Positions 3,001 to 40,176 of a stretch of DNA of 40,977 bases are shown here, piece after piece. A program made the translations under genes and the position numbers. The notes under the pieces are model-generated. The model was given only the letters and a program-made list of their open reading frames with translations, was not told the origin of the DNA and made no database searches. Positions within the stretch are counted from its first letter, which is position 1; each line of letters begins with the position of its first letter. The DNA is from a virus (taxonomy: Duplodnaviria > Caudoviricetes), in the IMG/VR virus record IMGVR_UViG_3300026262_000001, positions 1 to 40,977 of that record, one strand, 5' to 3'.

Positions 3001-3091
3001 CGATCTGTTCTGGCGCGACCTTTCCGCCACCCAATGGTCGGTCAGTTGGTCACTGCTCGCTGATATCCGCGATCTGACGGAATCCAAGTAA
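1..3091 (+). CDS. Tail tip / host-specificity protein (GpJ-like), C-terminal part; 5' part lies at 40585-40977
   Basis: Frame is open from nt 2 (PISSLDRVLINK...) into the 978-aa ORF. It has tail-tip motifs (GAPLYDPR, WAFTENP, RYRCG) and a C-terminal extension with Asp-box-like repeats (STDGASQW, SEDGGTTW) and a CBM-like segment (LLNGNFESG...WMDNLRL). Confidence 0.85.
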   Translation, partial: PISSLDRVLINKEPQSFTSPGNLYGNTAGGTRLNKKAWLRWYDGTQTAADDMLTQIYGAYERPWTADHILTGVPYAVLTFKFDQDILSSFPEVLFEVRGAPLYDPREDSSVGGEGPQRWNDPSTWAFTENPIVMVYNILRGLTLADGSMYGLGVPEDDLPLDRWAAQMNVCDELVAIPGIMVGGDTEQRYRCGLEFSTAQQPLDVIADILKSCGGQIAECGGIWNVSAGPVPFPRAHFADGTIITSSDRDLRPFRGLNDTYNAAHVSHPSRDAFWEATDAPPYYRPDLEAEDDGRRLVADLALPSVTYPYQAQRLAIEMVSDNRRMISHTLTLPPAAISLLPLDTITWTSAKNGYQAKLFEIASKTIDPKTLCVSVNLRERDPADYRYDYTDLTEPSTPGEQVEDGAPEGNAPEEGYTEPGTGNPLTPSRPGQSLGDLIALHDGSLSRSTDGASQWVKIPAPFSGAREISALDAAGYVVRDTSGGLWFSGDSQSWGAVDVLPATTDAGLLNGNFESGLDNWQTISGTPAALSTSTPAQRPGSAQYLAAEDAEVSQVVSVPAGKHLTLSGDALAGPGGVARIGIRAGQNESVRPFNQVAFDGANFRTDNGTSYRYKTVNNAFTMPDGTQVRIEWYAEAMTKYTAVNGSPPGLYGTSQEVQARLRFYNQATGAPVSVTGGFSIRNFDSGDGAWVQQAAGVSVLAGTGSNLPMTTSSADGYTWINARATAGTDNACSVLLESVHEFRMKLWLKDIESTSEMVQFIPDPLPEHNTITSQNDYGVSTSSSDWQGLSVSAQTNETQVEVYARGTGAAWMDNLRLTYSDDDGQARTLARDLRDRRHLAATSGALHVIANGDATLLASTPFAADLVAADGLTIVIASGTSVALSEDGGTTWSQHTATASVAQVTARERVLAVLTTGELVEVATGGLTALSAFGTEHRLAHDVRRAAWFAVEVGSGAMQESTDLVTWTAAPNMPAGGVSGYRLMPAEIGRQIGWRDGKPDLFWRDLSATQWSVSWSLLADIRDLTESK

Positions 3092-3120
3092 GCGGACATT
3101 ACGCAAACGCCCCATCTCCT
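3091..3120 (+). promoter_or_regulatory. Class II (putative phage-sigma) promoter for lysis cassette
   Basis: AGCG-gacattacgcaaa-CGCCCCATCTCCT; one of 8 copies with identical spacing. Confidence 0.8.
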
Positions 3121-3144
3121 CAGGGTAAAACCAAGGGGTGGGGC

Positions 3145-3600
3145 GTGATCTACCAGGGCAAAAAAAGATATCCGGTTCGGGAGGTTGTTTTGCACACCTC
3201 GGCGACACCCGGCACCTGGTATCGCGGAAAAACCGCTGATCAGATGCGCGACGAAATCCGGCGTTGGCATGTCGATGGGCGCGGCTGGCGCGATATCGGC
3301 TATCACCGGGTCATTGCCCCCGATGGCGAGATTGCGATTGGTCGTTCCCTCTGGGAAATCGGCGCGCATGTAATGGGACGCAACCGCGGCACAATCGGCA
3401 TCTGCCTGGTGCCCGTGCGCACGCACAACGGCATCGGCCAGTTCTCCGATTATTTCACGCCTGACCAGGAAAAAGCCCTGAAAGCCTATCTGCGCGAACT
3501 GGCGGCGCTCACGAAGATCGAGCGCGTGAGCGGGCACAACGAGTTCGCTGCCAAAGAATGCCCTGGTTTCCGGGTTCGCACCGGAGATTGGATTGAATGA
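3145..3600 (+). CDS. Endolysin, N-acetylmuramoyl-L-alanine amidase (T7 lysozyme/Amidase_2-like)
   Basis: VVLHTSAT, GWRDIGYH, GAHVMGRN, IGICL and GHNEFAAKECPGF zinc-amidase motifs. Confidence 0.92.
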   Translation: MIYQGKKRYPVREVVLHTSATPGTWYRGKTADQMRDEIRRWHVDGRGWRDIGYHRVIAPDGEIAIGRSLWEIGAHVMGRNRGTIGICLVPVRTHNGIGQFSDYFTPDQEKALKAYLRELAALTKIERVSGHNEFAAKECPGFRVRTGDWIE

Positions 3601-4022
3601 AAACCGAGGTTGCCAACGCCGTCGCCGAGAACGCCGAGTCCATTTTCCGCGACCCCCTCACTCTCGCGCTGACTGGTCTTGGCATCGGCTTCGCGCCACA
3701 TGAATACATTGGCGGCTTGTTCCTCGCCCTGGCCGGTGCCTCGATCGCCTCGGCGATGAACCGCGAGCAAGACCGGCGCCGCTTTTGGGTGGTGATGCTC
3801 ACCGCCATCTTCATCTCACACCTGGCGGCTATGGCTGCCGAGGCAATCTGGCCCGCGTTGCCGTTCCAAGCGGTCATGGCCCTGGCAGGCTTTGGCTCGC
3901 GCTACCTTGTGAAAATGATGCTGCGCACATTCGGCATCCTCGAAGAGCGCAGCGACAAGATCGCCGATCGCATCGTGGATCGCTTCATTCCCGATCAGGA
4001 CAAGGATGGGGATGCGAAATGA
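3597..4022 (+). CDS. Putative holin
   Basis: Several hydrophobic segments and a charged C-terminus; overlaps the endolysin stop (ATGA). Confidence 0.7.
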   Translation: MKTEVANAVAENAESIFRDPLTLALTGLGIGFAPHEYIGGLFLALAGASIASAMNREQDRRRFWVVMLTAIFISHLAAMAAEAIWPALPFQAVMALAGFGSRYLVKMMLRTFGILEERSDKIADRIVDRFIPDQDKDGDAK

Positions 4023-4420
4023 CCCACACCTTGGCCATCCTCATCATGACGGCCGGCCTGGCAGGGTGCAGCGCATCCGACATTGGCAAGGCAGCCTTGA
4101 GTGCAGCGGTGGGTGGTGGCCCATCGGTCAATGCCAATGCGCAGGTGGGAAAAACAAACAGCCAGACAATCGGCAGCACGCGCACCATCGAGATGAGCGG
4201 GCCTGTGGCGCGCCCTGAAAGCGTGGAAACGCTGACGCAGAACACCGAGCAGGATGCGAGCGAAAACCGGGTCAAGGCAGATAGCGTTGAAATGGTTGTG
4301 GTGAATGAGATTCCCGCACTGCTGATTTGGCTCCTGGTGGGATTGCTGGTGCTCGCAGTGGTGCTTGGCGTGCTTGGATGGATGGCACCGGTTCCAAAGT
4401 GGGTCGAACGCAGGCGCTGA
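4019..4420 (+). CDS. Putative unimolecular spanin (lipoprotein with C-terminal transmembrane segment)
   Basis: Start at ATG 4019 gives MTHTLAILIMTAGLAGC (lipobox LAGC) and a C-terminal TM (LLIWLLVGLLVLAVVLGVLGW); last gene of the lysis cassette. Confidence 0.75.
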   Translation: MTHTLAILIMTAGLAGCSASDIGKAALSAAVGGGPSVNANAQVGKTNSQTIGSTRTIEMSGPVARPESVETLTQNTEQDASENRVKADSVEMVVVNEIPALLIWLLVGLLVLAVVLGVLGWMAPVPKWVERRR

Positions 4421-4483
4421 TTTTTCGATGGGGCGGGTTTGTCCCTATGTCCCTGGAAACAAAACCAGAACATGGCAGGCGAC

Positions 4484-5322
4484 ATGACACCCAATCAGGA
4501 ACGAGCACTTCGCGGAAACTCAATGCTTTTCGGGTGCGATTTTCACCTGAAGACGCACCAAGGCGATGATGAATTCGACAGGGTTGTAGCATTCGGAGAG
4601 ATGGCCAATGAGCTGCGCCCCACCTGCATTGGCATCGGAGGAGATTTGGTTGAGTTCGTCTCTATCATGAAGAGTGTGGTTGAGAGTCCTGCGGGGTTCG
4701 ATCGTAAGTTTCTCGAGCAGGAGAAGCGGCTCTTTCGCATGGCGCTACAAGCCATTCTGAGCCCGAGAGATGTTACTGGCCTGAGCACGGAGTCCATTTT
4801 CTCGAAGGGAACCATGAGGCGCGGCACCGACATTCTCGGTCGCTCGATCCCGAGGAGCTTGTGCGCATCGTGGGGGAGCTGGGCATCACATGGCATGAGC
4901 TGGGCAATGCATTCTGGTATCAAGGAACGGGGTTTGCGCATCTGCAAAAATCAGGCGCCAAGGGCCGTGGGCGGTTTCCACAGGGCGCGGCCATTTCCAC
5001 GATCATCAATCGCCACAGATCATTCGTAGTGGGTGATGAACACAAGAAAGATATTCGGATGTCCCATACCTCTGATGGAGGTGTTATCACCGCGATGAAG
5101 GCGGGCTGCATGGTGTCTCACAAAGAAATCGACACCGCATCAGATGAGTGGGCCGGCGCATTCCTTCTAACCCACATGCAGGACGGAACTTTCTGCATCA
5201 ACGAATACCCCTATGACTACATCATGGAGCGGTGGGGTCGTGGCGGTTACGCTCAGGAGCTGAGGATGCGGCGAGCGCAAGAGGCTCGGGATCTCGATGA
5301 CGCCCGGCACGCGTTTGCTTGA
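4484..5322 (+). pseudogene. Calcineurin-like metallophosphoesterase, frameshifted near 4760-4775
   Basis: CDFH and GGDL motifs lie in one frame; VHFLEGNHE and the C-terminal half lie in the -1 frame ending at 5322. Confidence 0.7.
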
Positions 5323-5399
5323 TGGGAGCCGGTATGTAAGCGATACATACCGATGCATACCTAACATAACATGGATTATCGGCTACGAGTGACCGGCCC

Positions 5400-5618
5400 T
5401 CACTCGTCTTCGAGGCAGGCCACCATCGCGCCCTCGATCATGCGCCCTTCCCAAGAAACATCACCCGCCTGGATCGCCTCGATCAGGCTTGCGGTTGCAG
5501 GCAGAACCTCGGCTACATCTGCCATGTCCCGCAGCGCATCCGGGGAGGTGCCGGCGCAGACGATTTCTTGCTCTTCGGTGATGCCGACATATCCGGCTGT
5601 TGAGTTATCCACAGGCAC
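5400..5618 (-). CDS. Small acidic hypothetical protein
   Basis: 72 aa, GTG start preceded by GGAGG. Confidence 0.6.
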   Translation of the reverse strand: MPVDNSTAGYVGITEEQEIVCAGTSPDALRDMADVAEVLPATASLIEAIQAGDVSWEGRMIEGAMVACLEDE

Positions 5619-5826: not shown

Positions 5827-5828
5827 CC

Positions 5829-6686
5829 TCACAGAAGCAGCTTGCGGTAGCGCATGCGTAGCAGCGGATCGCCGTTCGCGCCGCGCTCCTCAACCAGCTC
5901 GTAGGTAGGGATTTTCTCCGCGGCGATGGCCTTGCGTAGAGCCTTCGCAAAATCTGCATACCTCATCTGAGAGCCCGAGCGCCGGTGCAGGTCGCGGAAA
6001 CTGAACGCCCATCCGTCAGAGTTGTCGAGGCCGTTTCCGGCATGGCGCCGTGCCAGTCGATACAAGAACCGGTCGAGCCCCGATGTGAGGTCGAAGTAGA
6101 GCGGCGTGATGCTCAGAACCTCTTTGCGGCTGCCGGTCACTGCACGATAGATCCATGTCGGGATGGTCATCTGAGCGCCGAGCGGCCTGGCGTTGCCCTC
6201 GGCATCCTTGACTTCATCGAGTGTGAAATCCGACACCAGGTTGAAATCTTCGTGCCTATCTTTCCGGTCGTGGCGACGGATTGTCGTTCGGATGCGGGTT
6301 GCCCTCAGGCGGTTCATCGCGGATTTGAACCGCTCATACTCCCGACCCCCTACCCTACCCATACTGTCGCACCACCGGATGCTCTTCATCAAGTCATACG
6401 GCCGAAATGAGATCGTCTGCGCCGGGGTCTCGCCTCTCTCAACCGCAGCATTAAGTTGCGAAATGGCCCAAATCACCAAGTCGAAATCCCAAATCGTGGC
6501 AATGTCGTCGCCCTCTGTCGAAGTGATCACGACCTGTTGCCCGCTCGGCCCCTCCCATTCGATGCGGCGCTGACCGCGCTTGGCTATCGACACCATGGGG
6601 GCTGACATCATCTCCTTGTCATCGCGCAGCGGCACATCACCGACGAGCGCCACGAACAAATCGAGCTGCTCCTTTGCAGTGCTCAC
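5829..6686 (-). CDS. repA: Plasmid replication initiator protein A (RPA family)
   Basis: QLDLF...DDKEMMSAPMVSI, IATIWDFDLVIWAISQL, RLRATRIRT, YFDLTSGLDRFLYRLARRHAG are typical of alphaproteobacterial RPA initiators; adjacent iterons. Confidence 0.9.
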   Translation of the reverse strand: MSTAKEQLDLFVALVGDVPLRDDKEMMSAPMVSIAKRGQRRIEWEGPSGQQVVITSTEGDDIATIWDFDLVIWAISQLNAAVERGETPAQTISFRPYDLMKSIRWCDSMGRVGGREYERFKSAMNRLRATRIRTTIRRHDRKDRHEDFNLVSDFTLDEVKDAEGNARPLGAQMTIPTWIYRAVTGSRKEVLSITPLYFDLTSGLDRFLYRLARRHAGNGLDNSDGWAFSFRDLHRRSGSQMRYADFAKALRKAIAAEKIPTYELVEERGANGDPLLRMRYRKLLL

Positions 6687-6979
6687 TCGCTCGCATCCTG
6701 CGTAGATGCGTGCTTGCGTAGATACGCACGCGCAGCCTCATCGAGAATGTCTTGGTGTGTCCGGCCGCTCTCGAAAGACAGACGGCGTAGGGCTTGGTAG
6801 GTCTCGCCATCGAGCACCAGGCTCAGACGCTTGCTCGGCGCCATCGGCGCGGGTGCCGGCTTCGGTTTTGCTTTCGGTGCCGCCTTCGGCTTTGCGTGAG
6901 TCGAAGCCCCCTGCCCTTTCTGATCGGGAACCTTGGCATCGGGATTGACCAACCCATCCAGGCTGAAACTCTTCGCCAT
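6683..6979 (-). CDS. Small ribbon-helix-helix partition protein (ParG-like)
   Basis: Flexible Pro/Lys-rich N-terminus followed by KRLSLVLDGETYQALRRLSFESGRTHQDILDEAARAYL; translationally coupled to parA and repA. Confidence 0.75.
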   Translation of the reverse strand: MAKSFSLDGLVNPDAKVPDQKGQGASTHAKPKAAPKAKPKPAPAPMAPSKRLSLVLDGETYQALRRLSFESGRTHQDILDEAARAYLRKHASTQDASE

Positions 6980-7590
6980 CACATGACCTCCTGGACATAA
7001 CCCCACAGGCGTTTCATCTCCTCAAGCGCCTTCGGATCTCTTGCTTCAACAACGCTTTCTCCGCTGCCGCCTATCTCAGCATACACCACCCGCGAGTGGA
7101 TATTCACGGGCGCGACCCGCCCATGCTGGGCGAGCGCCCTGGCGACAGCATCTGTGAGGGCTGCCCTCGGGTTGATCATGGTCATCACGAAGGCGATCGA
7201 GGCCCCTGCCCTACTCGCGGCTCCGATCGTTGCGCCGATGGCGTCGAGGTCGTCAGTGCTTGCTCGCGCGGGAATGAGAACGAGATCAGAAGAGCCCATG
7301 ACATCTGACATCCACGCCGGAACTGTGGGAGGGGTGTCTATAACAACCAGGTCAAAATGCCCATTCAGCCGAGCCAGGACGCCGGGGATCTCCCCCGGCT
7401 CCGGGTCGGCGTCGAGCATCGTGGGCTCATCAGCCTGGCGTCGTTCGAGCCATCTCCTGGTGGTGCCTTGCGGGTCGAGGTCGATGAGCAGCACGCGCTG
7501 CCCGTCCTCGGCGGCAACGGCTGCCAGGTTCCTGCTGAGGGCGGTCTTTCCGGCGCCGCCCTTCTGTGCCGCTACAACAAGCGTTTTCAT
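6979..7590 (-). CDS. parA: ParA family partition ATPase (short, type Ib)
   Basis: Deviant Walker A QKGGAGKT, IDLDPQG and VVIDTPP; no N-terminal HTH. Confidence 0.93.
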   Translation of the reverse strand: MKTLVVAAQKGGAGKTALSRNLAAVAAEDGQRVLLIDLDPQGTTRRWLERRQADEPTMLDADPEPGEIPGVLARLNGHFDLVVIDTPPTVPAWMSDVMGSSDLVLIPARASTDDLDAIGATIGAASRAGASIAFVMTMINPRAALTDAVARALAQHGRVAPVNIHSRVVYAEIGGSGESVVEARDPKALEEMKRLWGYVQEVM

Positions 7591-7625
7591 GCCGGCAATC
7601 TCGCCGGTTCCGATCACGCAGTCAA

Positions 7626-7720
7626 GCACGCACTCGCGCACATACGCACGCACCTACGCTCCTACGCAGCTGCGTAGATACGCGCGCACGCAGTTACGCA
7701 CTTGCGCACGCATGCACGCA
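7626..7720. repeat. parS-like centromere: clustered short (T/C)ACGCA repeats upstream of parA
   Basis: gcacgcac...tacgcacgcacctacgctcctacgca...ttacgcacttgcgcacgcatgcacgca; similar repeats at 6690-6735. Confidence 0.65.
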
Positions 7721-7762
7721 GCGCTACCATTTCGAAACCGGCCCGCCAGGAGGAGACCCGCC

Positions 7763-8340: not shown

Positions 8341-8354
8341 GTGATCCTCGTCAG

Positions 8355-8387: not shown

Positions 8388-8422
8388 ATGGCGAGGGCTC
8401 TGGATCGGGGAGGGTAGGGGGC

Positions 8423-9758: not shown

Positions 9759-9786
9759 AATTAGGAACAGGCAGACAGCCACAAAA
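9759..9786 (-). promoter_or_regulatory. Class I early promoter TTTTG-N16-CCTAATT
   Basis: Same motif recurs at 10535, 12439 and 15909. Confidence 0.65.
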
Positions 9787-10071
9787 ACGAAAATCCGCTA
9801 TTTTTCACACCACCAGGGCAGGACCGGAAAAACAGGCAGGAAAACCGCGCAGAATGTCCCAAAAATATTTGAGGCCCGGATTGCTCCGAGCCTCTACCGC
9901 GTCTCGTGCGGCTGCCGCTCGTTCCCGGATTCACCCACATCTGCGCCCAATGAAAGCAGATGGCGGGGCACAACATCACGCTGCACATGACAGCTCGGGC
10001 GTTAGTTGCAGGGGAAAGGAAGAAACCCTGCCGACGCCGAGGAGAGTAGCCCCGGCGCCGTTCGCTGTAAC

Positions 10072-10534: not shown

Positions 10535-10563
10535 AATTAGGAACGAAAGACCCCGGCCCAAAA
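10535..10563 (-). promoter_or_regulatory. Class I promoter TTTTG-N17-CCTAATT for ssb, overlapping a hairpin (10545-10580)
   Basis: Reverse complement ttttgggccggggtctttcgttcctaatt; accccggc/gccggggt stem. Confidence 0.65.
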
Positions 10564-12438: not shown

Positions 12439-12467
12439 AATTAGGAACGGGTGGCGCGCACCCAAAA
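12439..12467 (-). promoter_or_regulatory. Class I promoter TTTTG-N17-CCTAATT for recombination operon
   Basis: Reverse complement ttttgggtgcgcgccacccgttcctaatt. Confidence 0.65.
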
Positions 12468-12946: not shown

Positions 12947-13031
12947 TTAGTGAGATCGTTGCCTTTTCCGCAATTCTGGTCGCGAGAACAGCATGCGGGG
13001 CCTAATTCCCTCTCAAAAAGAGGGCAGGACA

Positions 13032-14324
13032 ATGGCGTTCAAAGTAGCGTATCACATGGAGGGCTGGAGGCCGGATCAGCTCATTTATTTTCAGAAGCAC
13101 CATGAGCGGAGCTTCGGAGATCTGGACCACTGCGATCCGTCGAAGAAAAACCAGAACGAGGTCATTCATGGCGGTCCAACTTGGGCCGAGGACTTCATCG
13201 CCGAGGTCGAGATGATGTCCGTTCTCAACATGAAGAACGAGGCGCTCGCCCTCCGCAAGGCTGGCCGCCCAGGCCCGGCGAAGAGGGTCGAGCGTGCTGG
13301 CCCCCAAGATCCCTGGAAGGCATCGCAGAAGCTCGGCGGCGTCCGCTCTGTCGTCGTGAGTGCCGACGAGAAGTTTTTCCGAAAGGCGGGCCTGTCGGAT
13401 GCGGATATTGCCGAACTCGAGGGCGCCGACTTCCGGGACCCGGTGATTTGTCGCAAGTTCAAGGAGCTGGCAGTCTCATATCTCGACTCCGAAATCCCGC
13501 GCGAGCACTGCCTTTTCATGGTGTGGGAAATGGACGAAAAAACTCCCCACCTGCACGCCTACTACGCCTGCTGGAATGAGAAAGAGACGAAGGGCAAAGG
13601 ACGCCAGCGCATGCTCCAGCCCACTGACATGCTCCATTTCAGGAACGCAGAGAAGGCGCAGACTTCGGTCGCGGAATGGTTCAAGCCGCTGGGGCTCGAC
13701 CGCGGCGACAATACCGCGCAAAAGCGCCGGGAGGCGAAGGCTGCGGGCAAGGTTCCGCCGGAGAAGAAGCAGCATGTTCCGCCCTGGCTCTATCGCCGCC
13801 AGCAACGCGCCGAAAATCTCCAAGCCGCCGAGCTCGCGCAGGTCGAGCAGGCGAAGCTCGAAGGAAAGCGCCGGGCGGCGGAGGCATTCGCCGGCAAGGT
13901 TCTGGCGTCCGAAGAAGAGCGGAAGAAGAAGGATGTCGAGGCGGAGAAGCGTCGCCGGAAACAGGATGTCGAAGCGGCTCGCCGTCGCGCAAACCTGGAT
14001 GCGAAGGCATCAGAGCGACGGAAGGAGCTTGCCAGGAAGGCCGAGGCCGATGCCATGAAGCAGGCGGAGGCGGAGATCGCGAAGAAGAGGGCCGAGGTCG
14101 AGAAAGAGCGCGCCGCTGTGGCGAAGGAGCGCGCCGAAGTCGACCGCAAGCGCGAGGGGCTGGTCGAGGTCATGCGGGCCTACTTCCCGCTTGCAGAGAC
14201 CATCCGGGCGGCGGCAAGAAAGGTCGGCTTGGCTGACCACCCACTGATCCAGTCAGCGGGACGAGCCGTCGATAAGATGCGCGATCTCGTCGGGCGTCTT
14301 GGAGGAGAAGATCGGGGGCGTTGA
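13032..14324 (+). CDS. MobV/Pre-family relaxase (plasmid recombination/mobilisation protein)
   Basis: KHHERS...HCDPSKKNQN N-terminal motif, EMDEKTPHLH HUH motif and a long C-terminal coiled coil. Confidence 0.8.
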   Translation: MAFKVAYHMEGWRPDQLIYFQKHHERSFGDLDHCDPSKKNQNEVIHGGPTWAEDFIAEVEMMSVLNMKNEALALRKAGRPGPAKRVERAGPQDPWKASQKLGGVRSVVVSADEKFFRKAGLSDADIAELEGADFRDPVICRKFKELAVSYLDSEIPREHCLFMVWEMDEKTPHLHAYYACWNEKETKGKGRQRMLQPTDMLHFRNAEKAQTSVAEWFKPLGLDRGDNTAQKRREAKAAGKVPPEKKQHVPPWLYRRQQRAENLQAAELAQVEQAKLEGKRRAAEAFAGKVLASEEERKKKDVEAEKRRRKQDVEAARRRANLDAKASERRKELARKAEADAMKQAEAEIAKKRAEVEKERAAVAKERAEVDRKREGLVEVMRAYFPLAETIRAAARKVGLADHPLIQSAGRAVDKMRDLVGRLGGEDRGR

Positions 14325-15908: not shown

Positions 15909-15937
15909 AATTAGGCACGCTCTGATCGGCCCCAAAA
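15909..15937 (-). promoter_or_regulatory. Class I promoter TTTTG-N17-CCTAATT
   Basis: Reverse complement ttttggggccgatcagagcgtgcctaatt; divergent from the class II promoter at 15982. Confidence 0.65.
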
Positions 15938-15981: not shown

Positions 15982-16011
15982 AGCGGGTGCCGGGCATTCG
16001 CCCCATCTCCT
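15982..16011 (+). promoter_or_regulatory. Class II promoter for helicase (probably leaderless mRNA)
   Basis: AGCG-ggtgccgggcatt-CGCCCCATCTCCT, then cggcATG. Confidence 0.75.
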
Positions 16012-16015: not shown

Positions 16016-17494
16016 ATGTTCGAGGTTCCACTCAGAGACTATCAGACCAAGGTCATTTTGCGCCTCTATGAGCTGCTTAGGGCAGGCCGGCGCCGCATCC
16101 TAATTCAGATGCCGCCTGGCAGCGGAAAGACCATCACCGCCGCCCGTGCAGTCGCTGACGCACTCCCCAAGGATCGCCGTGTCCTGTTCCTCGCCCACCG
16201 GCGAGAACTCATCACACAACCGCGGGATACCTTCGCGAAATTCGGCATGACTGGTGGGATCGTCAAAGCAGGGTTCGACTTCGAGCCTGAGCACCCGCTT
16301 CAGATCGCCTCCGTCCAGACGCTCATCAATCGCCTGGCTCAGATCCACGCGCCGGACATCATCATCGTCGACGAGGCACACCATGCGACTGCCGGCACAT
16401 GGGATCGTATTCTGGCAGCATTTCCCGATGCGATCGTAATCGGCCTATCGGGCACGCCTGAGCGTGCCGATGGAACCGGCCTTGATGATACATTCGAGGA
16501 GATGATCGACGGCCCATCGATCCCGTGGCTCATCGAGAGCGGGTTCCTTGTCGATTGCGATGTCTACGGGGCCGCAGACCGCATCCAGATCCCGCGCCCG
16601 AAGAACGGCGCCGAATACGACTACAAGAAGGTGCTGAGGGCCCTCGAGCGCAAGGGCAGAGACGGCGACCCCCTGGTGCAGTGGCGCAAGCATCACCGCC
16701 CTGGACGACGCGGTGTCGGGTTCGGCCCAAGCATCGAATACTGCAATGATCAGGCCGATAGGTTCCGTGCGGCAGGGTATCGGGCGTTCTCACTCACAAG
16801 CGAGACCGACGACGAGGAGCGCGACGCGATCCTGGCCGGATTCGAGAATGGCACCACGGACTTTGTCTGGAACTGCGGCGTGATCGGGGAGGGGACGGAC
16901 ATCCCCGACCTCGAGATCCTCATCGACTGCATGAAGACGAAGAGCCTGGTCGCCTATCTCCAGCGCGTCTTCCGCATCCTGCGCCCAGCCAAGGGCAAGG
17001 AGGTCGGCATCTATATCGACCTCGTCGGCAATGCCGCCGAGCATGGACACCCATGCATTGCCCGACAGTTCTCTCTCCAGGGCGAGAAGGGGCGGAAGAA
17101 GCTTTCGGAGACGACAGAGGACGGCGAGCACCTCTCGACCCGGCAATGCAACGGATGCTTCCAGCACTTCCGGACACCGGCGCAGGTCTGCCCGTATTGC
17201 GACTTCGACAACGGCATCGACCGCCGCGTCTCCCGTGAGCGCGCTGCCGAGATCAGGAAGCTAAAGAAGGATGAACTTGCTGCCGCGAAGAAGGCCGCCA
17301 CCGCCGCCCGCCTCCAAGAAGAGAGGGACTGCAACAGCCTGGATGAGCTGATCGCACTCGGCCACAGGCGTGGCTACAACCCGAACTGGGCATACACCCG
17401 CTGGAAGAAGTCCGGAAAAGGCAAGAAGGCCATGGCGGCCGCGGCGCGCGACGCGGTGCAGATGAAGTTCGGCGCCGACGGGTGGCCGACATGA
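16016..17494 (+). CDS. SF2 DEAD/DEAH-box helicase with C-terminal zinc finger
   Basis: MPPGSGKT, VDEAHH, GLSGTPER, YLQRVFRILRP, CNGC...CPYC. Confidence 0.93.
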   Translation: MFEVPLRDYQTKVILRLYELLRAGRRRILIQMPPGSGKTITAARAVADALPKDRRVLFLAHRRELITQPRDTFAKFGMTGGIVKAGFDFEPEHPLQIASVQTLINRLAQIHAPDIIIVDEAHHATAGTWDRILAAFPDAIVIGLSGTPERADGTGLDDTFEEMIDGPSIPWLIESGFLVDCDVYGAADRIQIPRPKNGAEYDYKKVLRALERKGRDGDPLVQWRKHHRPGRRGVGFGPSIEYCNDQADRFRAAGYRAFSLTSETDDEERDAILAGFENGTTDFVWNCGVIGEGTDIPDLEILIDCMKTKSLVAYLQRVFRILRPAKGKEVGIYIDLVGNAAEHGHPCIARQFSLQGEKGRKKLSETTEDGEHLSTRQCNGCFQHFRTPAQVCPYCDFDNGIDRRVSRERAAEIRKLKKDELAAAKKAATAARLQEERDCNSLDELIALGHRRGYNPNWAYTRWKKSGKGKKAMAAAARDAVQMKFGADGWPT

Positions 17495-17883
17495 CCAAGG
17501 CGCGAAAGACAGACAAGTCAGAATCCGAGGTGATGGACGAGGTTGCGGATGCTTGGTCGGAAAACTTCGCCCCTGGCGTTCTCTGGCGCCAGAACGCCGG
17601 CCAGGGTCTCACCCTGTCCGGGACCAGAATTCCTCTCGGCCCGACCGGCATCTCTGACTATGTCGGCTTCCTGCCAGGCGGGTGGATCGTGTTCGTTGAG
17701 GTCAAGAAACGCACCGGCAAACTTCGCGCCTCTCAGGTCAAGTGGCGGAAGATGGTCACCGCCGCTGGATGCATCTTCGTCGTCGCCCGCTCAGGGCCCG
17801 AACTCGTTCGGGGCATACATGCCGAGTGTGCCGCACGCGGCATCACCCCACCAGGTCGTCGAGTCCCAGCCCCCGCGCCTTGA
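17491..17883 (+). CDS. VRR-NUC domain nuclease
   Basis: GISDYVG...VFVEVKKRTGKLRASQ PD-(D/E)XK pattern. Confidence 0.85.
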   Translation: MTKARKTDKSESEVMDEVADAWSENFAPGVLWRQNAGQGLTLSGTRIPLGPTGISDYVGFLPGGWIVFVEVKKRTGKLRASQVKWRKMVTAAGCIFVVARSGPELVRGIHAECAARGITPPGRRVPAPAP

Positions 17884-18670
17884 GTGCAGATGCCATGCGC
17901 ACAATCGCGGCAGCATGGATCTGACGAGCTCGCTCTCGTGTCATGCCCATCTCGTCGGCAATGGACTGAAATGACCGGAGCTCCCGCCTATCATTGGCCT
18001 CACCCCAGTGGCGCTCACGGACGATATGTCTTGCACGATCGTCGCCTTTGCATGCCTCCTCGATGATCTCTTCAATGATCGCGGGCAGGCGAGACTGGTC
18101 GACCTGGTCGACTGCGTGGGGGTCGCGAGCCTCCATCTGGATAGCGCCGAACTCGCCCCCTTCATCTTCTGACACGGGAGCAGAGAGGCTAAAGCCCTGG
18201 TAGCAAGAAAGCGCTTCGGCAGCATGATCTCGCTCAATGCAAAGCATCCACGCGGCGATCGTGATGCCGAGCTCGACACTGCGACCATCCTTCGTGACCG
18301 CTCCAACAATCCCGCGCACCCGGCGATGGATGTCACGCTCCTTGTTCGACTTCTTCATCGAGAGCTGCGTATCGGCTCCGAGAGTTGCCGCCTCCAGATG
18401 CCGCCTGACAGACTCCTTGTAGTATGCGCCGAACGGCACTCCATCCTCAGGACGGAACCGGGCCGCACATTTCACGAGGCAGACCCTCGCCTCCTGCCAG
18501 AGCATCTCAAGGTCGAGAACCTTCGCCTGCCGGCGGACATTTGCAATCGCCATGAGGATCGGCGTCCTGACCGAGTTCTCCAACAGCTCGAACGCGATCT
18601 CGTCGCGATCCTCAATCCACGCCTTCACCCAGGCTGCTTGGTCCTCACCTCTCCGGAATTGTTCGCTCAT
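17843..18670 (-). CDS. Phage-encoded sigma70-family RNA polymerase sigma factor, RpoH/sigma32-like
   Basis: Region 2 (EMLWQEARVCLVKCAARFRPEDGVPFGAY), region 3.2 SLSAPV and region 4.2 HTH (SFQSIADEMGMTRERARQI); 275 aa, no region 1.1. Confidence 0.85.
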   Translation of the reverse strand: MSEQFRRGEDQAAWVKAWIEDRDEIAFELLENSVRTPILMAIANVRRQAKVLDLEMLWQEARVCLVKCAARFRPEDGVPFGAYYKESVRRHLEAATLGADTQLSMKKSNKERDIHRRVRGIVGAVTKDGRSVELGITIAAWMLCIERDHAAEALSCYQGFSLSAPVSEDEGGEFGAIQMEARDPHAVDQVDQSRLPAIIEEIIEEACKGDDRARHIVRERHWGEANDRRELRSFQSIADEMGMTRERARQIHAAAIVRMASALKARGLGLDDLVG

Positions 18671-18850
18671 GTCGGGCCTGCCCTGTTCGTTTTTTGTTCT
18701 TCACAGGAGGTAGGTCCCAGGGGAGCTTGGCGGAAATGTCGGGAGGTTCGGGCACCTTCGAGTTCAACAAAAAACTCTGGTGCAGGTCACGGGCCGGACT
18801 CGACCCGGTTACCCGGTGCAGCTACGGTGCCGCAAAAACGAGAGGATAGA

Positions 18851-19588
18851 ATGGACTTCAGAAAAACGCTGCAAGCTGAACTCGACAAGCTTGTCGATAG
18901 CTACAAAGTGTGTGGAATTGTCGATCAAGCAGGCACGGTTTATCCACTCGGAGCAGATACGAAAGTTCTCAGCACGATTTTCGAACTCGTAAGCCGACCG
19001 GCCGTTTATGCGGCTGCGAAGACTATGGGCTATGAGGTCGTCGAGCCCACTGTGCAGAACCACTATCCCGATTTCACCCTACACAAGGGTTTGGGCGAGA
19101 ATGGAAAAATCGCCCTCGACGTCAAGACGACCTACCGACTGCGGGACGATGCCAAGTTCAACTACACCCTTGGCGGTTATACCAGTTTCATGCGCGGCAC
19201 GGGTCGGAAGAACATCGTGTTCCCCTTCGACGAGTATTCCGAGCACTGGGTGATCGGGTTCATCTACAATCGGGTAGCTGAAAAGAAGGCCGGTGCCGAA
19301 CATAGCTACTCAATTAGCGATCTTCTGGATATTCCACTTCCCTTCGAAAACGTCGATGTATTCGTTCAGGAGAAATGGCGCATCTCGAGTGATCGTGCCG
19401 GTAGTGGAAACACGACCAATATCGGCAGCATCAACGGCACCCTCGAAGACTTCGAAGAGGGCCGAGGCCCATTCGAATCAGAAGAGGAATTTCTCGAATA
19501 CTGGAGGTCCTACGGACGGACAAAAAGCGATCGCACCGATTTCTCAAACATTGACGGCTTCCGCCGCCTCAAACAGGGGCAGAACTGA
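18851..19588 (+). CDS. Type II restriction endonuclease, EcoRV family (predicted GATATC)
   Basis: DTKVLSTIFEL, QNHYPDFTL, IALDVKTTY, TLGGYTSF, KNIVFPF and recognition loop AGSGNTTNIGS; 245 aa from ATG 18851 (GAGGA RBS). Confidence 0.93.
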   Translation: MDFRKTLQAELDKLVDSYKVCGIVDQAGTVYPLGADTKVLSTIFELVSRPAVYAAAKTMGYEVVEPTVQNHYPDFTLHKGLGENGKIALDVKTTYRLRDDAKFNYTLGGYTSFMRGTGRKNIVFPFDEYSEHWVIGFIYNRVAEKKAGAEHSYSISDLLDIPLPFENVDVFVQEKWRISSDRAGSGNTTNIGSINGTLEDFEEGRGPFESEEEFLEYWRSYGRTKSDRTDFSNIDGFRRLKQGQN

Positions 19589-20479
19589 CGGCTTCGCCGC
19601 TTCCTCCTCGACCACCGGCGCCGCAGCTCTCGGGGACAAGATTACCACCTCGGTCATCTCGTTCCTGAGGCTCTCGGTCGGCCCGACATGGTAGAAGTGA
19701 GACATCGTGCGCTGGGCATGATCCGCGAACCAACGGTCGACATACTCATTCCGGCGATACTTGTTCTCCAGCCAGTTCGACATCGCAAAATCGGCTGGAG
19801 ACGAGATCAGCATCTCGGCGAGGTCGTCGGAATCCTGATCCGTGAAACCGTTGTAGTAATCAGTGTGCCGTCCGACGTAGGGCGGATCAGCATAGATCAT
19901 GTCGCCGGCCTGAGCCTGACCAACGGTTTCCTTCCAGTCCTGGGCAACAAATTTCCAGTCCTTTCCGGCCATAGCTGTCGATGCCCATTCGACCTGATTC
20001 ACAATCTTTGTGACAAGTGCTGGACGGAAGCGTTCCGGCTTCCGGCAGAACGGGACATTGAAGCCGCCCTTCCTATTGAACCGCATCATGCCATTAAAGC
20101 AGGACCGGCTCAGGAAAACGAAGTCGAAGGGGTTGCCCTCGGCATTAAATCGATCGCGGATGAAGTAGTAGTGCTGCTCGCCTTGATCAAGCAGTGCTGA
20201 ACCCTCGCGGACGAGATACTCGCGCATCGTGTGGCCATTTATAGTGCCGTTCTGGATGCCACGGTAAAGTTCGATCATGTGCTCGTTGTTGTCGGCCAGC
20301 AGAGCCCGCTGAGGAGCGATGTTCAGCGCCACCACCCCGGAGCCCAGGAAAGGCTCGATCCAACGTCCAGAGCCTTCCCACACGATCGAGCGCGCGATCA
20401 GCGGCACGACCTTAGTCTTGATGCCTTGTGTCTTGATCGGAGGCGCCTTTGGTCGAATGGTTCGGGGAAGGAAGGTCAA
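19544..20479 (-). CDS. N6-adenine DNA methyltransferase, Dam/M.EcoRV family
   Basis: PPIKTQGIKTK, WIEPFLGSGVV, FNGMMRFN...FNVPF and DPPY; TTG start after AGGAG. Confidence 0.93.
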   Translation of the reverse strand: MTFLPRTIRPKAPPIKTQGIKTKVVPLIARSIVWEGSGRWIEPFLGSGVVALNIAPQRALLADNNEHMIELYRGIQNGTINGHTMREYLVREGSALLDQGEQHYYFIRDRFNAEGNPFDFVFLSRSCFNGMMRFNRKGGFNVPFCRKPERFRPALVTKIVNQVEWASTAMAGKDWKFVAQDWKETVGQAQAGDMIYADPPYVGRHTDYYNGFTDQDSDDLAEMLISSPADFAMSNWLENKYRRNEYVDRWFADHAQRTMSHFYHVGPTESLRNEMTEVVILSPRAAAPVVEEEAAKPSVLPLFEAAEAVNV

Positions 20480-21510: not shown

Positions 21511-21536
21511 AAAAAAAAGCCCCGGCCGAAGCCGGG
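21511..21536 (-). terminator. Rho-independent terminator after the DUF3987 gene
   Basis: cccggc-ttcg-gccggg followed by gc and T8 on the minus strand. Confidence 0.75.
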
Positions 21537-21597
21537 TCAGTTGCCGCTGTCGCGGGTAGGTAGGTGCCCGATTTTACCCTCGGCGCCGGGGTGTCTC

Positions 21598-23390: not shown

Positions 23391-23419
23391 AGGTAGGAAG
23401 GAGATGGGGCGTTCCAAAA
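23391..23419 (-). promoter_or_regulatory. Class I promoter TTTTG-N17-CCTACCT with a class II -10 box inside its spacer
   Basis: Reverse complement TTTTG-gAACGCCCCATCTCCTt-CCTACCT. Confidence 0.6.
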
Positions 23420-24417: not shown

Positions 24418-24494
24418 ATTTACAGACAAATCTCAAAATTGTCTGTAAATCGGAGCCGGCTCCGATTTTGGGCGCGCCTGGTCTGTCTCTATCT
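24418..24494 (+). promoter_or_regulatory. Two operator-like palindromes followed by a class I-like promoter
   Basis: ATTTACAGACAA-N9-TTGTCTGTAAAT; AAATCGGAGCCGGCTCCGATTT; TTTTG-N17-TCTATCT. Confidence 0.6.
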
Positions 24495-25811: not shown

Positions 25812-26155
25812 TGCACCTCATCGACTTCATCACTCGCGCCGCGACCATCGGCCAACGCTCTGACTGGTTCGGCACCTGTGTGTGTATCTCATCCGTCGCG
25901 TTCGATGCCCTCATTCGTCAGCACCCCGATTTGGAGGTGTGGCATCGCGCGGGACCCAATCCGGGCTTTGATGATCGCACCACGCGCCTGCGTGAGCCCC
26001 ATGTAGAGATCTGGGCCAGGTCTGGCGGAAGCCCCGAGCAGGCTGCGGTCAGCGTCCATGGTATTCAGATCTGGGGCGGGGCATTGCCCCGATCGAATCA
26101 CGAGCGTCTGACATTCCATGTGGCTCTCAATGCGCCGAGTAGCGAAACCGCCTGA
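25811..26155 (+). CDS. Hypothetical protein
   Basis: TGATG overlap; 114 aa. Confidence 0.55.
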   Translation: MHLIDFITRAATIGQRSDWFGTCVCISSVAFDALIRQHPDLEVWHRAGPNPGFDDRTTRLREPHVEIWARSGGSPEQAAVSVHGIQIWGGALPRSNHERLTFHVALNAPSSETA

Positions 26156-26170
26156 GACGCCCCATCTCCT
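26141..26170 (+). promoter_or_regulatory. Class II promoter upstream of the tRNA-like RNA
   Basis: AGCG-aaaccgcctgaga-CGCCCCATCTCCT. Confidence 0.75.
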
Positions 26171-26199
26171 GCGCAGGCTGAGCCTACGGGGTCTTCGTT

Positions 26200-26318
26200 A
26201 TGAGGGCCGGCACCACTGCCTGGCATAGCCAGGGGAAGGCGGTAGGAGAGCAGAGGGCGGCACAGCAAGCCCTCTCCATCTCCGAAGCGGGTTCAAGTCC
26301 CGCCAGTGGCTTGCTCAT
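26200..26318 (+). ncRNA. tRNA-like structured RNA without a canonical anticodon arm
   Basis: T arm GCGGG-TTCAAGT-CCCGC (26287-303); CCACTG/CAGTGG closing stem; D-arm-like TAGCC-AGGGGAA-GGC; long AGAGGGC/GCCCTCT hairpin. Confidence 0.55.
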
Positions 26319-26319: not shown

Positions 26320-26349
26320 AGCGATCACCCACCAAACGCCCCATCTCCT
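26320..26349 (+). promoter_or_regulatory. Class II promoter for HNH/terminase (probably leaderless mRNA)
   Basis: AGCG-atcacccaccaaa-CGCCCCATCTCCT, then cggcATG. Confidence 0.8.
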
Positions 26350-27337: not shown

Positions 27338-29120
27338 GGATGACTGCCCGGTTCGCCTCTATGCTGAGGCCGTCGTTTCCGGTGAGGAAATCGCCGGGCC
27401 CCATGTCCGCGCCGCCTGCCAGAGGCACCTCGATGACCTGGAGAACGGACACGAGCGGGGGCTCTGGTTCGATTACGAAGCCTGTCAGCGCGTTCTGTCT
27501 TTCTTTCCAGATGTGCTGCGCCTGAATGGTGGCCAGTTCGAAGGCATCCCGTTCGACCTGCATCCCTCTCAGGCATTCATTGTCGGGTCCCTGTTCGGGT
27601 GGAAGATAGCGAGCGGTGCGCGCCGCTTCCGCACCTCATACATCGAGATGGGCAAGGGTAACGGCAAGTCTCCTCTGGCTGGCGGTATCGGTCTCTACAT
27701 GATGACGGCAGACCACGAACCAGGCGCCGAGATCTACGCAGCTGCGACGAAGACTGAGCAGGCTCGCATCCTGTTCAAGGATGCTGTGAAGATGGTTCAG
27801 CAATCGCCGGCTTTGTCTGCGCGTCTCGAGCTGTCGGGAAACAACCCCGTCCATACGATCAGCCGCCTGAAAGACGGCTCGTTCTTCAAGCCGATCTCGA
27901 AGGAAAGCGGCAAGACTGGCTCGGGGCCGCGTCCTCATTGCGGTCTGATCGACGAGCTGCACGAGCATCCGAACCGCGACATCACCGAGATGATCGAGCG
28001 GGGCTTCAAGTTTCGACAGAACCCGCTTCTGTTCCAAATCACCAACTCCGGCTCCGACCGGAACAGCTATTGCTTCGAGCAGCACGAGCTGGCGGTGAAG
28101 GCTGCGCATCGCTCACATGAGCCGGCTGAACTCGCATCCCTTGATCGCCTCTTCTCCTATGTCTGCGCCCTCGATGAGGGAGACGATCCCCTGGCTGTGG
28201 ATTTCGATGAGGATGGCAAGCCGATCCATCCTGTCGATGTATGGAAGAAAGCCAACCCGCTCCTGGGGACGATCCTGACGGAGGAATACCTGGCAGGTGT
28301 CGCGGCTGATGCTCGCACTGCCAAGGGCAAGGCCAACGGCATCAAGCGACTTCATTTCTGCCAGTGGACAGACGCTGAGTCCGCGTGGCTCGACCGGACA
28401 ATCTGGGAAGCTGCGGAAGACTCCTCGCTCACTGAGGAGGAGTTCTACGATCTCGATGTTGAGGCCGTTGTGGGTCTCGATCTCGGCGCAAAGCAAGACC
28501 TCACCGGCTTGGCAAAGGTCTTTCCAGACGGAAAGACGGAGGATGGCAAGCCGAAGTTCGCTTTGATTGTGACGGGATACACACCGGCCGACACGCTGCG
28601 TGAGAGAGCGAAACGGGACAGCGCCAGATATGTGGAGTGGGTCGATGAGGGATATCTCAACACCACACCAGGGAAGGTCACGCAGTATGAATGGGTGGTC
28701 AAAGATCTGGTCGACTTCCAGGAGAAGATCGCGATCCGGGCCATCGCCTATGACAAGTGGATGTTCTCGAAGTTCGAGGATGCCCTCGATGAGTTCCAGG
28801 TCGAGTTCAACACTGTAGAGCATCCCCAAGGCCCGAAGCGTCGCAAAGACACCCCGCTTTGCATGAACGACAGCGTGGAGATGTTCGAGGAGTTGCTTCT
28901 CGAGAAGCGCCTCAGGATCGCTGTCAATCCCGCTCTCCGATCTGCGATTTCCTCGGCCGTGGTGGTCGAGACAGCCACCGGCCAGCGGTTCCTGGACAAG
29001 AAGAAATCAACTGCCCGGATCGACCTTGCAGTCGCCGCAGTCATGGCGGTCGGCGCGGCAAGCGAAGCGCATCTGAACGCCCCATCTTCCAAGGGAACAC
29101 CAAGGGCCCGTCTTGCATGA
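27312..29120 (+). CDS. terL: Terminase large subunit
   Basis: GKGNGKS Walker A, IDELHEH Walker B, GLDLG, RIDLAVA. Confidence 0.95.
   Translation: MTRHPSISEDDCPVRLYAEAVVSGEEIAGPHVRAACQRHLDDLENGHERGLWFDYEACQRVLSFFPDVLRLNGGQFEGIPFDLHPSQAFIVGSLFGWKIASGARRFRTSYIEMGKGNGKSPLAGGIGLYMMTADHEPGAEIYAAATKTEQARILFKDAVKMVQQSPALSARLELSGNNPVHTISRLKDGSFFKPISKESGKTGSGPRPHCGLIDELHEHPNRDITEMIERGFKFRQNPLLFQITNSGSDRNSYCFEQHELAVKAAHRSHEPAELASLDRLFSYVCALDEGDDPLAVDFDEDGKPIHPVDVWKKANPLLGTILTEEYLAGVAADARTAKGKANGIKRLHFCQWTDAESAWLDRTIWEAAEDSSLTEEEFYDLDVEAVVGLDLGAKQDLTGLAKVFPDGKTEDGKPKFALIVTGYTPADTLRERAKRDSARYVEWVDEGYLNTTPGKVTQYEWVVKDLVDFQEKIAIRAIAYDKWMFSKFEDALDEFQVEFNTVEHPQGPKRRKDTPLCMNDSVEMFEELLLEKRLRIAVNPALRSAISSAVVVETATGQRFLDKKKSTARIDLAVAAVMAVGAASEAHLNAPSSKGTPRARLA
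29061..29090 (+). promoter_or_regulatory. Class II promoter embedded in terL 3' end, for portal
   Basis: AGCG-aagcgcatctgaa-CGCCCCATCTTCC. Confidence 0.7.
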
Positions 29121-31231: not shown

Positions 31232-31261
31232 AGCGAAGTATAGGGAAACGCCCCATCTCCT
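31232..31261 (+). promoter_or_regulatory. Class II promoter for major capsid gene
   Basis: AGCG-aagtatagggaaa-CGCCCCATCTCCT. Confidence 0.8.
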
Positions 31262-34416: not shown

Positions 34417-34446
34417 AGCGAACATTCCGAAAACGCCCCATCTCCT
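34417..34446 (+). promoter_or_regulatory. Class II promoter for major tail gene
   Basis: AGCG-aacattccgaaaa-CGCCCCATCTCCT. Confidence 0.8.
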
Positions 34447-34478
34447 CATCAATAGAAAACACCAGCCGAGGATGAGGG

Positions 34479-38359: not shown

Positions 38360-38366
38360 GGTTTCG

Positions 38367-38984: not shown

Positions 38985-38988
38985 GGCA

Positions 38989-39816
38989 ATGGAATATTAC
39001 CCGATTTTGCCGTGTGGCTCTGGGGGCGGCTTTTCCGGCCCATACATCGAGGGCACTGGCGGCATTATCAGCGAGCACATGGACACCTCCGGGCAAAAAT
39101 GGCGGGTTCATGAGGCGCTGGATACTGAGACCTTTTCTATCGCCGATCTGGGTGGCGAACTCGGCGAACTCGATGTGGTTTGGGTTGCAGGCGGCGGCGG
39201 CGGCGGAACGGGCGGTGGGGGCGGCGGTGCGGGCGGTGTTCTGCGCGCTACTATCCTGGTTGAGGCAGGCGACCACACTCTTGTTGTTGGCGCTGGTGGC
39301 GCAGCCGGCAGTGGCACGGACGGAGCCCGCAACGGCTATCAGGGTGGCAACAGCACTGCATTTGGCGTCACTGCCATCGGCGGCGGCGGCGGCCGTGGCG
39401 CCACAACCTACAACTACACGAGGAAAAACGGCGGGTCGGGTGGCGGCCAGTTTCAAAACAATGATGGCCCCGGTTCGGGTGTTGCCTACCAGGGGCACAA
39501 GGGTGGTTTTGGCACACCAGGAACCGGCTGGGGGGAGTCTGGCGGCGGGGGCGGCGCCGGCGGGCCAGGTGGGGATTACAGGTCATCCGATGAAAGTTCG
39601 GATGGCGGGCTCGGCGTTCTTATCGAGGATTTTTTCGCAGAACCCCGGTGGTTGGCGAGCGGGGGTGCAACCGGAAGCGATGGTGTCGCACCTCCTGGTG
39701 GGGGTGGGTCATCGAGCACGCAGGGGGATGGTGCAGTGAATACAGGCGGTGGCGGGGCATCGACAATCGGCAACGGCGGTTCGGGGCTCATCGCAATCAG
39801 ATACAGGATCGAGTGA
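38989..39816 (+). CDS. Glycine-rich tail fibre-like protein
   Basis: VAGGGGGG...GGGGAGG, NTGGGG...GGSGLIAIRY. Confidence 0.7.
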   Translation: MEYYPILPCGSGGGFSGPYIEGTGGIISEHMDTSGQKWRVHEALDTETFSIADLGGELGELDVVWVAGGGGGGTGGGGGGAGGVLRATILVEAGDHTLVVGAGGAAGSGTDGARNGYQGGNSTAFGVTAIGGGGGRGATTYNYTRKNGGSGGGQFQNNDGPGSGVAYQGHKGGFGTPGTGWGESGGGGGAGGPGGDYRSSDESSDGGLGVLIEDFFAEPRWLASGGATGSDGVAPPGGGGSSSTQGDGAVNTGGGGASTIGNGGSGLIAIRYRIE

Positions 39817-39817
39817 C

Positions 39818-40147
39818 ATGGCACACGCAGCACTGATTGACGAAAACGGCGTGGTGCTCTGCGTCATCCGCATTCCTGATGAACAGGAAAACCGGGTGCA
39901 GGAATACTGCGCCGAGGATCTGAAACTCGGGGGGCGGTGGCTCCTGGTCAGTTACAATGACCGCATCCGGCGCCGCTTTCCGGCTGCGGGCATGCTCTAT
40001 GTCGAGCACCTGGACATGTTCGCACACCCGCAGCCTTTCCCATCCTGGGGGCTTGATGGCAAAGCGGATTGGCAGCCTCCTAAGCCGCGCCCATCCGAAA
40101 AGCACGGATGGGACGAAGACAACCAAGAGTGGGTGCTGCCGGCATAA
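39818..40147 (+). CDS. Partner of the glycine-rich protein (tail fibre assembly-like)
   Basis: MAHAALIDENGVVLCVI...SYN...PQPFPSW...WDEDNQEW. Confidence 0.7.
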   Translation: MAHAALIDENGVVLCVIRIPDEQENRVQEYCAEDLKLGGRWLLVSYNDRIRRRFPAAGMLYVEHLDMFAHPQPFPSWGLDGKADWQPPKPRPSEKHGWDEDNQEWVLPA

Positions 40148-40176
40148 GCGGCACCCACCCAAACGCCCCATCTCCT
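40147..40176 (+). promoter_or_regulatory. Class II promoter for tail-tip genes (probably leaderless mRNA)
   Basis: AGCG-gcacccacccaaa-CGCCCCATCTCCT, then cagcATG. Confidence 0.8.

Follow-up and report, generated by a model that had tools for sequence, protein, structure and literature searches.

A phage-encoded RpoH-related sigma factor and its candidate middle and late promoters in an uncultured 41-kb phage

Introduction

Salmonella phage 7-11 and phage phiEco32 are larger lytic podoviruses of enterobacteria, and SPO1 and T4 are large lytic myoviruses whose sigma factors are not known to be related to RpoH. Phage sigma factors with private late promoters are already established in 7-11 and SPO1. 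The sigma factor gp47 of 7-11, considered here together with phiEco32 gp36, has eight bipartite promoters serving late genes (PMC8948821), SPO1 gp28 and gp34 and T4 gp55 belong to phage sigma cascades (PMC9429907), and the siphovirus P-SS2 carries two sigma factors (PMC2784084). In passages from a survey of 103 alphaproteobacterial phages, a sigma factor comes up a single time, within a cluster that has T4-type genes (PMC10783043). We investigated a 40,977-nt stretch of DNA (hereafter the window), which is the complete virus record IMGVR_UViG_3300026262_000001 of an uncultured phage of about 41 kb, rated 100% complete. It encodes an RpoH-related protein of the sigma-70 family, P0001, and carries eight copies of a promoter-like motif, the class L sites, which we propose to be middle and late promoters read with the help of this protein.

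As with 7-11 gp47 and phiEco32 gp36, a phage factor of the sigma-70 family would join the host core enzyme at a private bipartite promoter before late genes, a host sigma factor would read the early promoters, and the consensus sequences of relatives are dissimilar at equivalent positions. Unlike in those phages, the sigma factor here is related to RpoH, genome size is about 40 kb, the lifestyles appear integrated or plasmid-like, and several transcripts are predicted to be leaderless. The control of middle and late genes by a phage sigma factor within a cascade would recall SPO1 gp28 and gp34 and T4 gp55, from which the window would differ by a two-step cascade with two promoter classes of RpoH geometry. 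Two related temperate alphaproteobacterial phages of similar genome size that share tail-tip or head genes with the window, vB_MseS-P1 (with an annotated NusG-like gene before HNH/terminase) and Aussie (with a Mor regulator), gave no sigma match and no repeated motif of class L geometry. We found no published description of the window's sigma family in a largely open-access literature, a point on which supplements such as promoter tables and annotations could bear; the RpoH-related family is a new form of an established arrangement.

Results

Class L sites in the window

Scanning the window for AGCG-N13-CGCCCCATCT revealed eight exact copies, all on the plus strand and all at gene starts (Table 1), compared with a mean of 0.01 and a largest count of 1 in 100 dinucleotide shuffles. 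The scan and shuffles agree with the original prediction, which had listed these sites and the units behind them; PHROGs matches downstream were amidase, helicase, HNH, portal, major head and major tail, and the last site precedes a DUF6950 tail-tip gene. Aligning the sites extended the consensus to AGCG-R-N9-AAA-CGCCCCATCT-CCT, and in a weight-matrix scan the eighth site scored 29.7 and the next-best candidate 12.4. A ninth CGCCCCATCT, at 23402-23411 on the minus strand, was ruled out as a class L promoter, being without AGCG, absent from the homologous leader of the related phage G002 and located inside the spacer of a site of another class (class E, described below). A scan with the sigma-70 consensus found no excess over expectation.

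Eight nucleotides past the last T of the -10 box, 8/8 sites have a purine, and in three of them (helicase, HNH and DUF6950) this base is the A of an in-frame ATG. By chance, three or more ATGs would fall at a given offset with a probability of 3e-4 (6e-3 across 20 offsets), and transcripts that begin with AUG and lack a leader have been reported in S. meliloti (PMC3616915). With this base as predicted +1, CCCCATCT falls at -15 to -8 and AGCG at -34 to -31, and the sites have the geometry of sigma-32 promoters, namely a 15-nt spacer after the -36 to -31 hexamer, an ANNT core and 7 nt to +1. The same spacing occurs in the E. coli dnaKp1 scaffold (PMC10216364; spacing counted by us) and at dnaK and clpB in three Rhodobacterales genomes, where a script picked promoter-like sites in 5 of 6 upstream regions, with TTG at -35 or -34, a 15-nt spacer, a -10 octamer and G at +1. 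TTG at -35, which R. sphaeroides RpoHI and RpoHII require (PMC3441632), was found in 0/8 class L sites. In host coordinates, the class L -35 box keeps G-33 and C-32 of the dnaK-type TTGCA, has lost both Ts and has a fixed G-31. With their purine +1, leaderless ATGs and sigma-32 geometry, the class L sites look like promoters.

Co-occurrence of the motif and the sigma gene

Besides the window, four sigma loci were found (G001 to G004), and three of these carry late genes and encode sigma factors with 27-31% identity to P0001. G001 is a provirus with the same DNA as the prophage of genome G615, and G002 is a prophage of the cultured strain Sulfitobacter dubius G21609-S1. G001 has 11 class L-type sites, nine with exact GG-CCACATCT and 4/11 leaderless, which precede a Mob-like gene, the helicase, a non-coding slot, HNH, TerS, portal, protease, tail tube, two tail genes and the lysis region. 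Six sites with GG-ACCGATAT were found in G002 and five with AG-CGTCATAT in G004, with an in-frame ATG at the predicted +1 in 1/6 and 0/5, respectively. Throughout the relatives (22/22 sites), CG at -32/-31, the 15-nt spacer and a purine +1 are present. The late 10-mer words differ among the four phages at 2-5 of 10 positions and have no matches in each other's phages, save one G001-type match in G004. The -35 rewritten around a retained -10, as originally proposed, describes the window phage only; family-wide, CG at -35 is constant and the -17 to -12 part of the -10 region varies by phage (CGCCCC, GGCCAC, GGACCG, AGCGTC).

G002 and G004 have a lambda-like terminase, portal and capsid, unrelated to the HK97-like head of the window, and their sites still precede terminase, portal region, protease and tail tube. 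The motif therefore follows the sigma module and not the head genes. When 350 open reading frames (ORFs) of the window were compared with the three relatives, the only true genes matching all of them were the Mob_Pre-like, helicase and sigma genes, and no other regulator was common to the four phages. The remaining locus, G003 (L234:12485-13273), is an intact sigma gene in a Salipiger prophage remnant without virion genes or late promoters; it has 0 motif matches and is uninformative for co-occurrence.

The top count of one exact CG-N13-(10-mer ending ATNT) word was 8, 9, 6 and 5 in the window, G001, G002 and G004, against at most 2 in 7/7 complete alphaproteobacterial-type phages without a sigma match and at most 2 in 79/79 TerL loci, which are fragments and may derive from genomes with a sigma gene (L130, the same phage, was left out). 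Phage Shpa has one word four times, but at spacer 12. Allowing one mismatch gave 11, 11 and 9 in three sigma phages, against shuffle maxima of 4-6. Motif and sigma gene thus co-occur in 4/4 sigma phages with late genes and in 0/7 complete sigma-less controls, as the original prediction had expected. In the host genomes, 11 of the 12 matches of the G001 late variant in G615 and 6/6 of the G002 variant lie inside the prophage, and the window motif has 0 matches in three Rhodobacterales genomes. On this distribution the class L sites appear not to be a host regulon.

The sigma protein and its family

Pfam Sigma70_r4 matched P0001 above its cut-off (E 4.5e-6), with a T-R-E-R-A-R-Q helix present, and Sigma70_r2 matched below it (E 6e-4). 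Region 2 aligns without gaps to RpoH 77-131 and is helical in the AlphaFold2 (AF2) model, where the predicted local distance difference test score (pLDDT) exceeds 90. The whole model has a pLDDT of 88 and a predicted template modelling score of 0.55, and its top Foldseek match was E. coli sigma-32 (8hkc_E; E 6e-7, 263 columns), with a template modelling score of 0.41, low as expected when domain placement differs. Region 2, the region 4 helix-turn-helix and the whole-length predicted fold place P0001 in the sigma-70 family, to which the 275-aa reading frame had been assigned from the start; its sense had to be corrected, the gene lying on the minus strand.

The best NCBIfam match of P0001 was alphaproteobacterial sigma-32 (E 2e-13), and a profile of its family matched E. 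coli RpoH best in PDB (8hkc, E 4e-39; RpoS, E 8e-33). The RpoH cut-offs were not reached (PRK07500, 50 bits vs 315; TIGR02392, 35.7 vs 323), and the RpoH box, named as characteristic of RpoH (PMC4843759), is degenerate, reading E-R-D-I-H-R-R-V-R where host RpoH1 has Q-K-K-L-F-F-N-L-R. The proposed RpoH type agrees with the best hidden Markov model, PDB and fold matches and fails at the cut-offs and the box. P0001 shares with bacterial RpoH (E. coli sigma-32 8HKC, PMC10216364; RpoH1/RpoH2) the promoter geometry, the ATNT core and a nearly kept R-E-R-x-R in region 4.2, and differs from it in its scores, its degenerate box, the loss of the HW/WW dyad, a -35 without TTG and a separate clade. P0001 is RpoH-like in its predicted working, yet outside RpoH membership.

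A rewritten -35 reader, which the original prediction implied, is not visible in the protein, whose region 4.2 helix is almost that of host RpoH1 and RpoD. In sigma-70, R584 and E585 make the -35 contacts. The retained G-33 and C-32 together with the fixed G-31 may be why a near-canonical helix suffices, and the loss of the aromatic melting dyad may, by analogy with work on alternative sigma factors, be a reason for the unusually strict class L consensus. No residue-to-base code could be read from the four sigma/promoter pairs.

A word-index protein search with P0001 matched only P0001 itself, and phmmer against 1.84 billion representatives found relatives of 227-275 aa with 24-35% identity and a common C-terminal RGLxLxDL tail; of ten relative clusters looked up, four were named from Rhodobacterales sources. 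Searching 50,697 phage records with P0001 and P0151 by tblastn gave weak matches only (at most 32% identity; RpoD or RpoH where annotated), no cultured phage in the searched collection encodes a family member, and P0004 had no match among plasmids. Family members were present in 2/401, 1/113, 2/401 and 1/151 genomes of overlapping samples; seven weaker matches in the first 401-genome sample behaved as host RpoH-like rows and were set aside. An exact scan of viral contigs for AGCG-N13-CGCCCCATCT listed 119 stretches, almost all with single matches, which we treated as chance by estimate and not by computation, and the stretches with further support were records of the same phage.

The sigma tree comprised 33 rows (11 family, 13 RpoH and 9 RpoD/RpoS-like; nine further family rows and long-branch rows were left out). 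Rooted on the RpoD/RpoS-like rows, it showed the family as its own clade (100/100) beside RpoH, a placement that, with three groups only, depends on the root. In approximately unbiased tests, grouping with RpoH1 (p 0.058) or with RpoH2 (p 0.17) was not rejected, so that the proposed phylogeny puts the family beside RpoH and leaves both origins standing. An earlier 74-row tree, which placed FliA inside the family, was set aside for its long branches and replaced by this one.

A second candidate promoter class

The leaders of the sigma genes share the element TT(T/G)-N18-NNCTANNT-N7-R, termed class E. The window has 8 matches (doublet shuffles, mean 1.1, maximum 3), G002 has 10, G001 has 6 (shuffle maximum 7, not significant), G004 has 3 (maximum 3) and the seven controls have 0-3. 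Six of the eight window sites took no part in setting the pattern, and each of these has the start codon of an early or accessory gene unit downstream. In the window the consensus reads TTTTGG-N15-YCCTANNT, with TTG at -34 in most sites. The -10 part agrees with host dnaK-type boxes as well as with the consensus CTTGAA-N15-16-CCTATAT of S. meliloti RpoH1 (PMC4843759). Class E resembles host RpoH promoters, which suggests a two-step cascade.

Table 1. Positions of the sigma gene, the promoter-like sites and associated features in the window
Feature	Position	Strand	Context
P0001, RpoH-related sigma-70-family protein	17843..18670	minus	275 aa, regions 2, 3, 4; Pfam, NCBIfam, profile, AF2/Foldseek
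Class L site	3091..3117	plus	before lysis amidase; predicted +1 3125 (G)
Class L site	15982..16008	plus	before SF2 helicase; predicted +1 16016 = A of helicase ATG, leaderless
Class L site	26141..26167	plus	before structured non-coding stretch; predicted +1 26175
Class L site	26320..26346	plus	before HNH/terminase; predicted +1 26354 = A of in-frame ATG, leaderless
Class L site	29061..29087	plus	inside TerL 3' end, before portal (in-frame ATG 29117); predicted +1 29095
Class L site	31232..31258	plus	before major capsid gene; predicted +1 31266
Class L site	34417..34443	plus	before major tail gene; predicted +1 34451
Class L site	40147..40173	plus	before DUF6950 tail-tip gene; predicted +1 40181 = A of DUF6950 ATG, leaderless
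Class E site	18708..18736	minus	before sigma gene; predicted +1 18700
Class E site	23391..23419	minus	before DUF3987 primase/helicase-like gene; spacer contains ninth CGCCCCATCT
Class E site	15909..15937	minus	before leftward small-gene cluster; back to back with helicase class L site
Class E site	12439..12467	minus	before leftward Erf/exonuclease unit
Class E site	10535..10563	minus	before ssb
Class E site	9759..9787	minus	before leftward unit ending in parA and repA
Class E site	4422..4450	plus	after lysis genes
Class E site	24466..24494	plus	before rightward small genes preceding late region
Hybrid site (class L-type -35, class E-type -10)	12979..13007	plus	before Mob_Pre-like gene 13032-14324; equivalents in G001 and G002
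Helicase and VRR-NUC genes	16016..17883	plus	converge on sigma gene, overlapping its 3' end by 41 nt
Structured non-coding stretch	26175..26312	plus	acceptor-like and T-arm-like stems, z = -1.6; between two class L sites

Other features of the window

The window combines HK97-like head genes and a siphovirus tail with RepA and ParA. No integrase or CI-like repressor match was obtained (68 ORFs against PHROGs, 44 against Pfam), nor any Q or NusG match among the ORFs scanned. RepA (PF10134) and ParA lie at 5829-7653 on the minus strand and, together with the missing integrase match, point to a prophage maintained in the manner of a plasmid, in contrast to the integrated G001 and G002. The Mob_Pre relaxase-like gene occurs in all four sigma phages, always upstream of the helicase, and stands behind a promoter-like site of the family geometry in three of them.

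In all four phages the helicase/VRR-NUC unit converges on the sigma gene, and one may speculate that it exerts negative feedback on sigma. Directly upstream of the sigma gene lie an EcoRV-like endonuclease (18851-19588, plus) and a D12 adenine methyltransferase (19544-20479, minus). G002 likewise has a methyltransferase with a convergent ORF beside sigma, and its late -10 box contains GATATC; a link between these neighbours and that box is doubtful, the G002 methyltransferase belonging to another PHROG family. The RNA described originally as tRNA-like does have the stems listed in Table 1, but ARAGORN and Rfam call nothing there, which leaves its tRNA identity unsupported, and in G001, which repeats the arrangement of two promoter-like sites, the slot is occupied by another hairpin. 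The class E site behind the lysis genes leads into an ORF at 4439-5029 (plus; region 4439-5322), overlapped by an ORF at 4861-5322 (plus) whose match to a metallophosphoesterase family is confined to the C-terminal portion of that family, and this gene may be split or frameshifted. A weak Rfam SorX match at 21513-21595 on the minus strand (E 0.61, far below the gathering score) is probably a terminator hairpin after the DUF3987 gene.

Discussion

From the sites, their geometry and gene context, the fold and family of P0001 and the co-occurrence of motif and sigma gene, we infer transcription, the assignment of sigma factors to promoter classes and timing as follows. A host holoenzyme, most likely of the RpoH1 type, would start at the eight class E sites, yielding recombination, partition and replication proteins together with the phage sigma factor. 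The latter would join host core, read SGCGR at -34 to -30 and CGCCCCATCT at -17 to -8, and initiate 8 nt past the last T, at the ATG in three cases. Helicase, packaging, head, tail and lysis units would then fire from separate promoters and not from one antiterminated late transcript. We give a probability of roughly 0.74 to the central claim, that class L sites are middle and late promoters read by host core with the phage RpoH-related sigma factor. The specificity that differs from phage to phage likely resides in -17 to -12, read by regions 2.4 and 3.0. That class E is read by a host sigma factor seems to us somewhat favoured, with RpoH1 a more likely reader than RpoD. The private late switch of the original prediction gains comparative evidence from its presence in four of four sigma phages with late genes and from the near confinement of the sites to the prophage in host genomes; it should be widened to a middle-plus-late regulon, since it includes the helicase, and the early class E had been overlooked. 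Replacement of Q-type antitermination, also proposed there, is plausible.

Several observations weigh against this scheme. Region 4.2 departs little from the canonical helix in P0001 and G001 but strongly in G004, despite the same -35 box, and across the family there is no co-variation between sigma protein and -35 box. At the H107/W108 melting dyad P0001 carries E-S, and the core-binding D77 position is occupied by M; these changes could make the protein weakly active. The comparison comprises only four phage/sigma pairs, one of them, G004, a 23-kb fragment, and with one mismatch allowed G004 has a count of 5 against a shuffle maximum of 4, a count that two controls also reach. The class E pattern was set post hoc, after the sigma-gene and primase leaders had been viewed, and in the three host chromosomes its strict form does not occur except within the G002 prophage. 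G at -31 is common to the two phage classes, in place of the A of host sites, and this base and the hybrid site before the Mob-like gene indicate that the division of labour between the sigma factors is not clean.

These last features would suit an arrangement in which the phage sigma factor acts at the TTG-type class E sites, alone or along with class L, and class L depends on an additional phage factor that takes over or alters recognition of the -35 box: a near-canonical 4.2 helix fits a TTG box, G-31 and the spacing are common to both classes, the hybrid site combines them, and strict class E is confined to the prophage in host genomes. The sigma gene, however, is itself preceded by a class E site, so another factor would have to start it; the window and G002, with sigma factors of 31% identity, have similar class E sites but class L -10 boxes that differ at 4/10 positions; and the four phages have no further regulator in common that could be the extra factor. 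We therefore regard this arrangement as improbable. A shared activator is equally missing for the proposal that host RpoH reads the class L -10, a phage activator binds AGCG and the phage sigma factor serves elsewhere, for example in reprogramming host genes. The class L -10 does resemble host clpB-type boxes and the S. meliloti RpoH2 box CCTATCT (PMC4843759), and related alphaproteobacterial phages have annotated NusG-like or Mor activators, but a conserved host sigma factor would not be expected to follow a -10 region that varies by phage, and the window motif is absent from the three Rhodobacterales genomes; we hold this proposal to be quite unlikely. Very little probability attaches to class L sites being binding or processing sites, for the Mob_Pre-like protein or in RNA processing, instead of promoters. 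The Mob-like gene is indeed common to all four phages, but its protein has homologues in 40/401 genomes searched and is 47-55% conserved while the motif varies, and the sites keep a single orientation, always stand at gene starts and have a fixed 15-nt spacer with a purine or ATG at +8 in 30/30 cases.

Reading by host core with the phage sigma factor could be extended to a lytic switch wired to heat shock. Host RpoH would read class E, protein-damage stress and not repressor cleavage would induce the phage sigma factor, and its late -10 code would have diverged so that the sigma factor of each phage ignores host and cousin promoters alike. This extension is tentative, and we consider it unlikely as a whole.

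The four natural and probably matched sigma/promoter pairs, which have the same geometry and lie 2-5 of 10 bases apart in the extended -10, would make a recognition code of regions 2.4 and 3.0 testable, and testing is practical because one pair resides in the prophage of cultured Sulfitobacter dubius G21609-S1. If the proposed reading is true, such pairs would be candidate orthogonal expression parts for Alphaproteobacteria, and small temperate Rhodobacterales phages would time their late genes by a borrowed heat-shock-type sigma factor and many promoters instead of antitermination.

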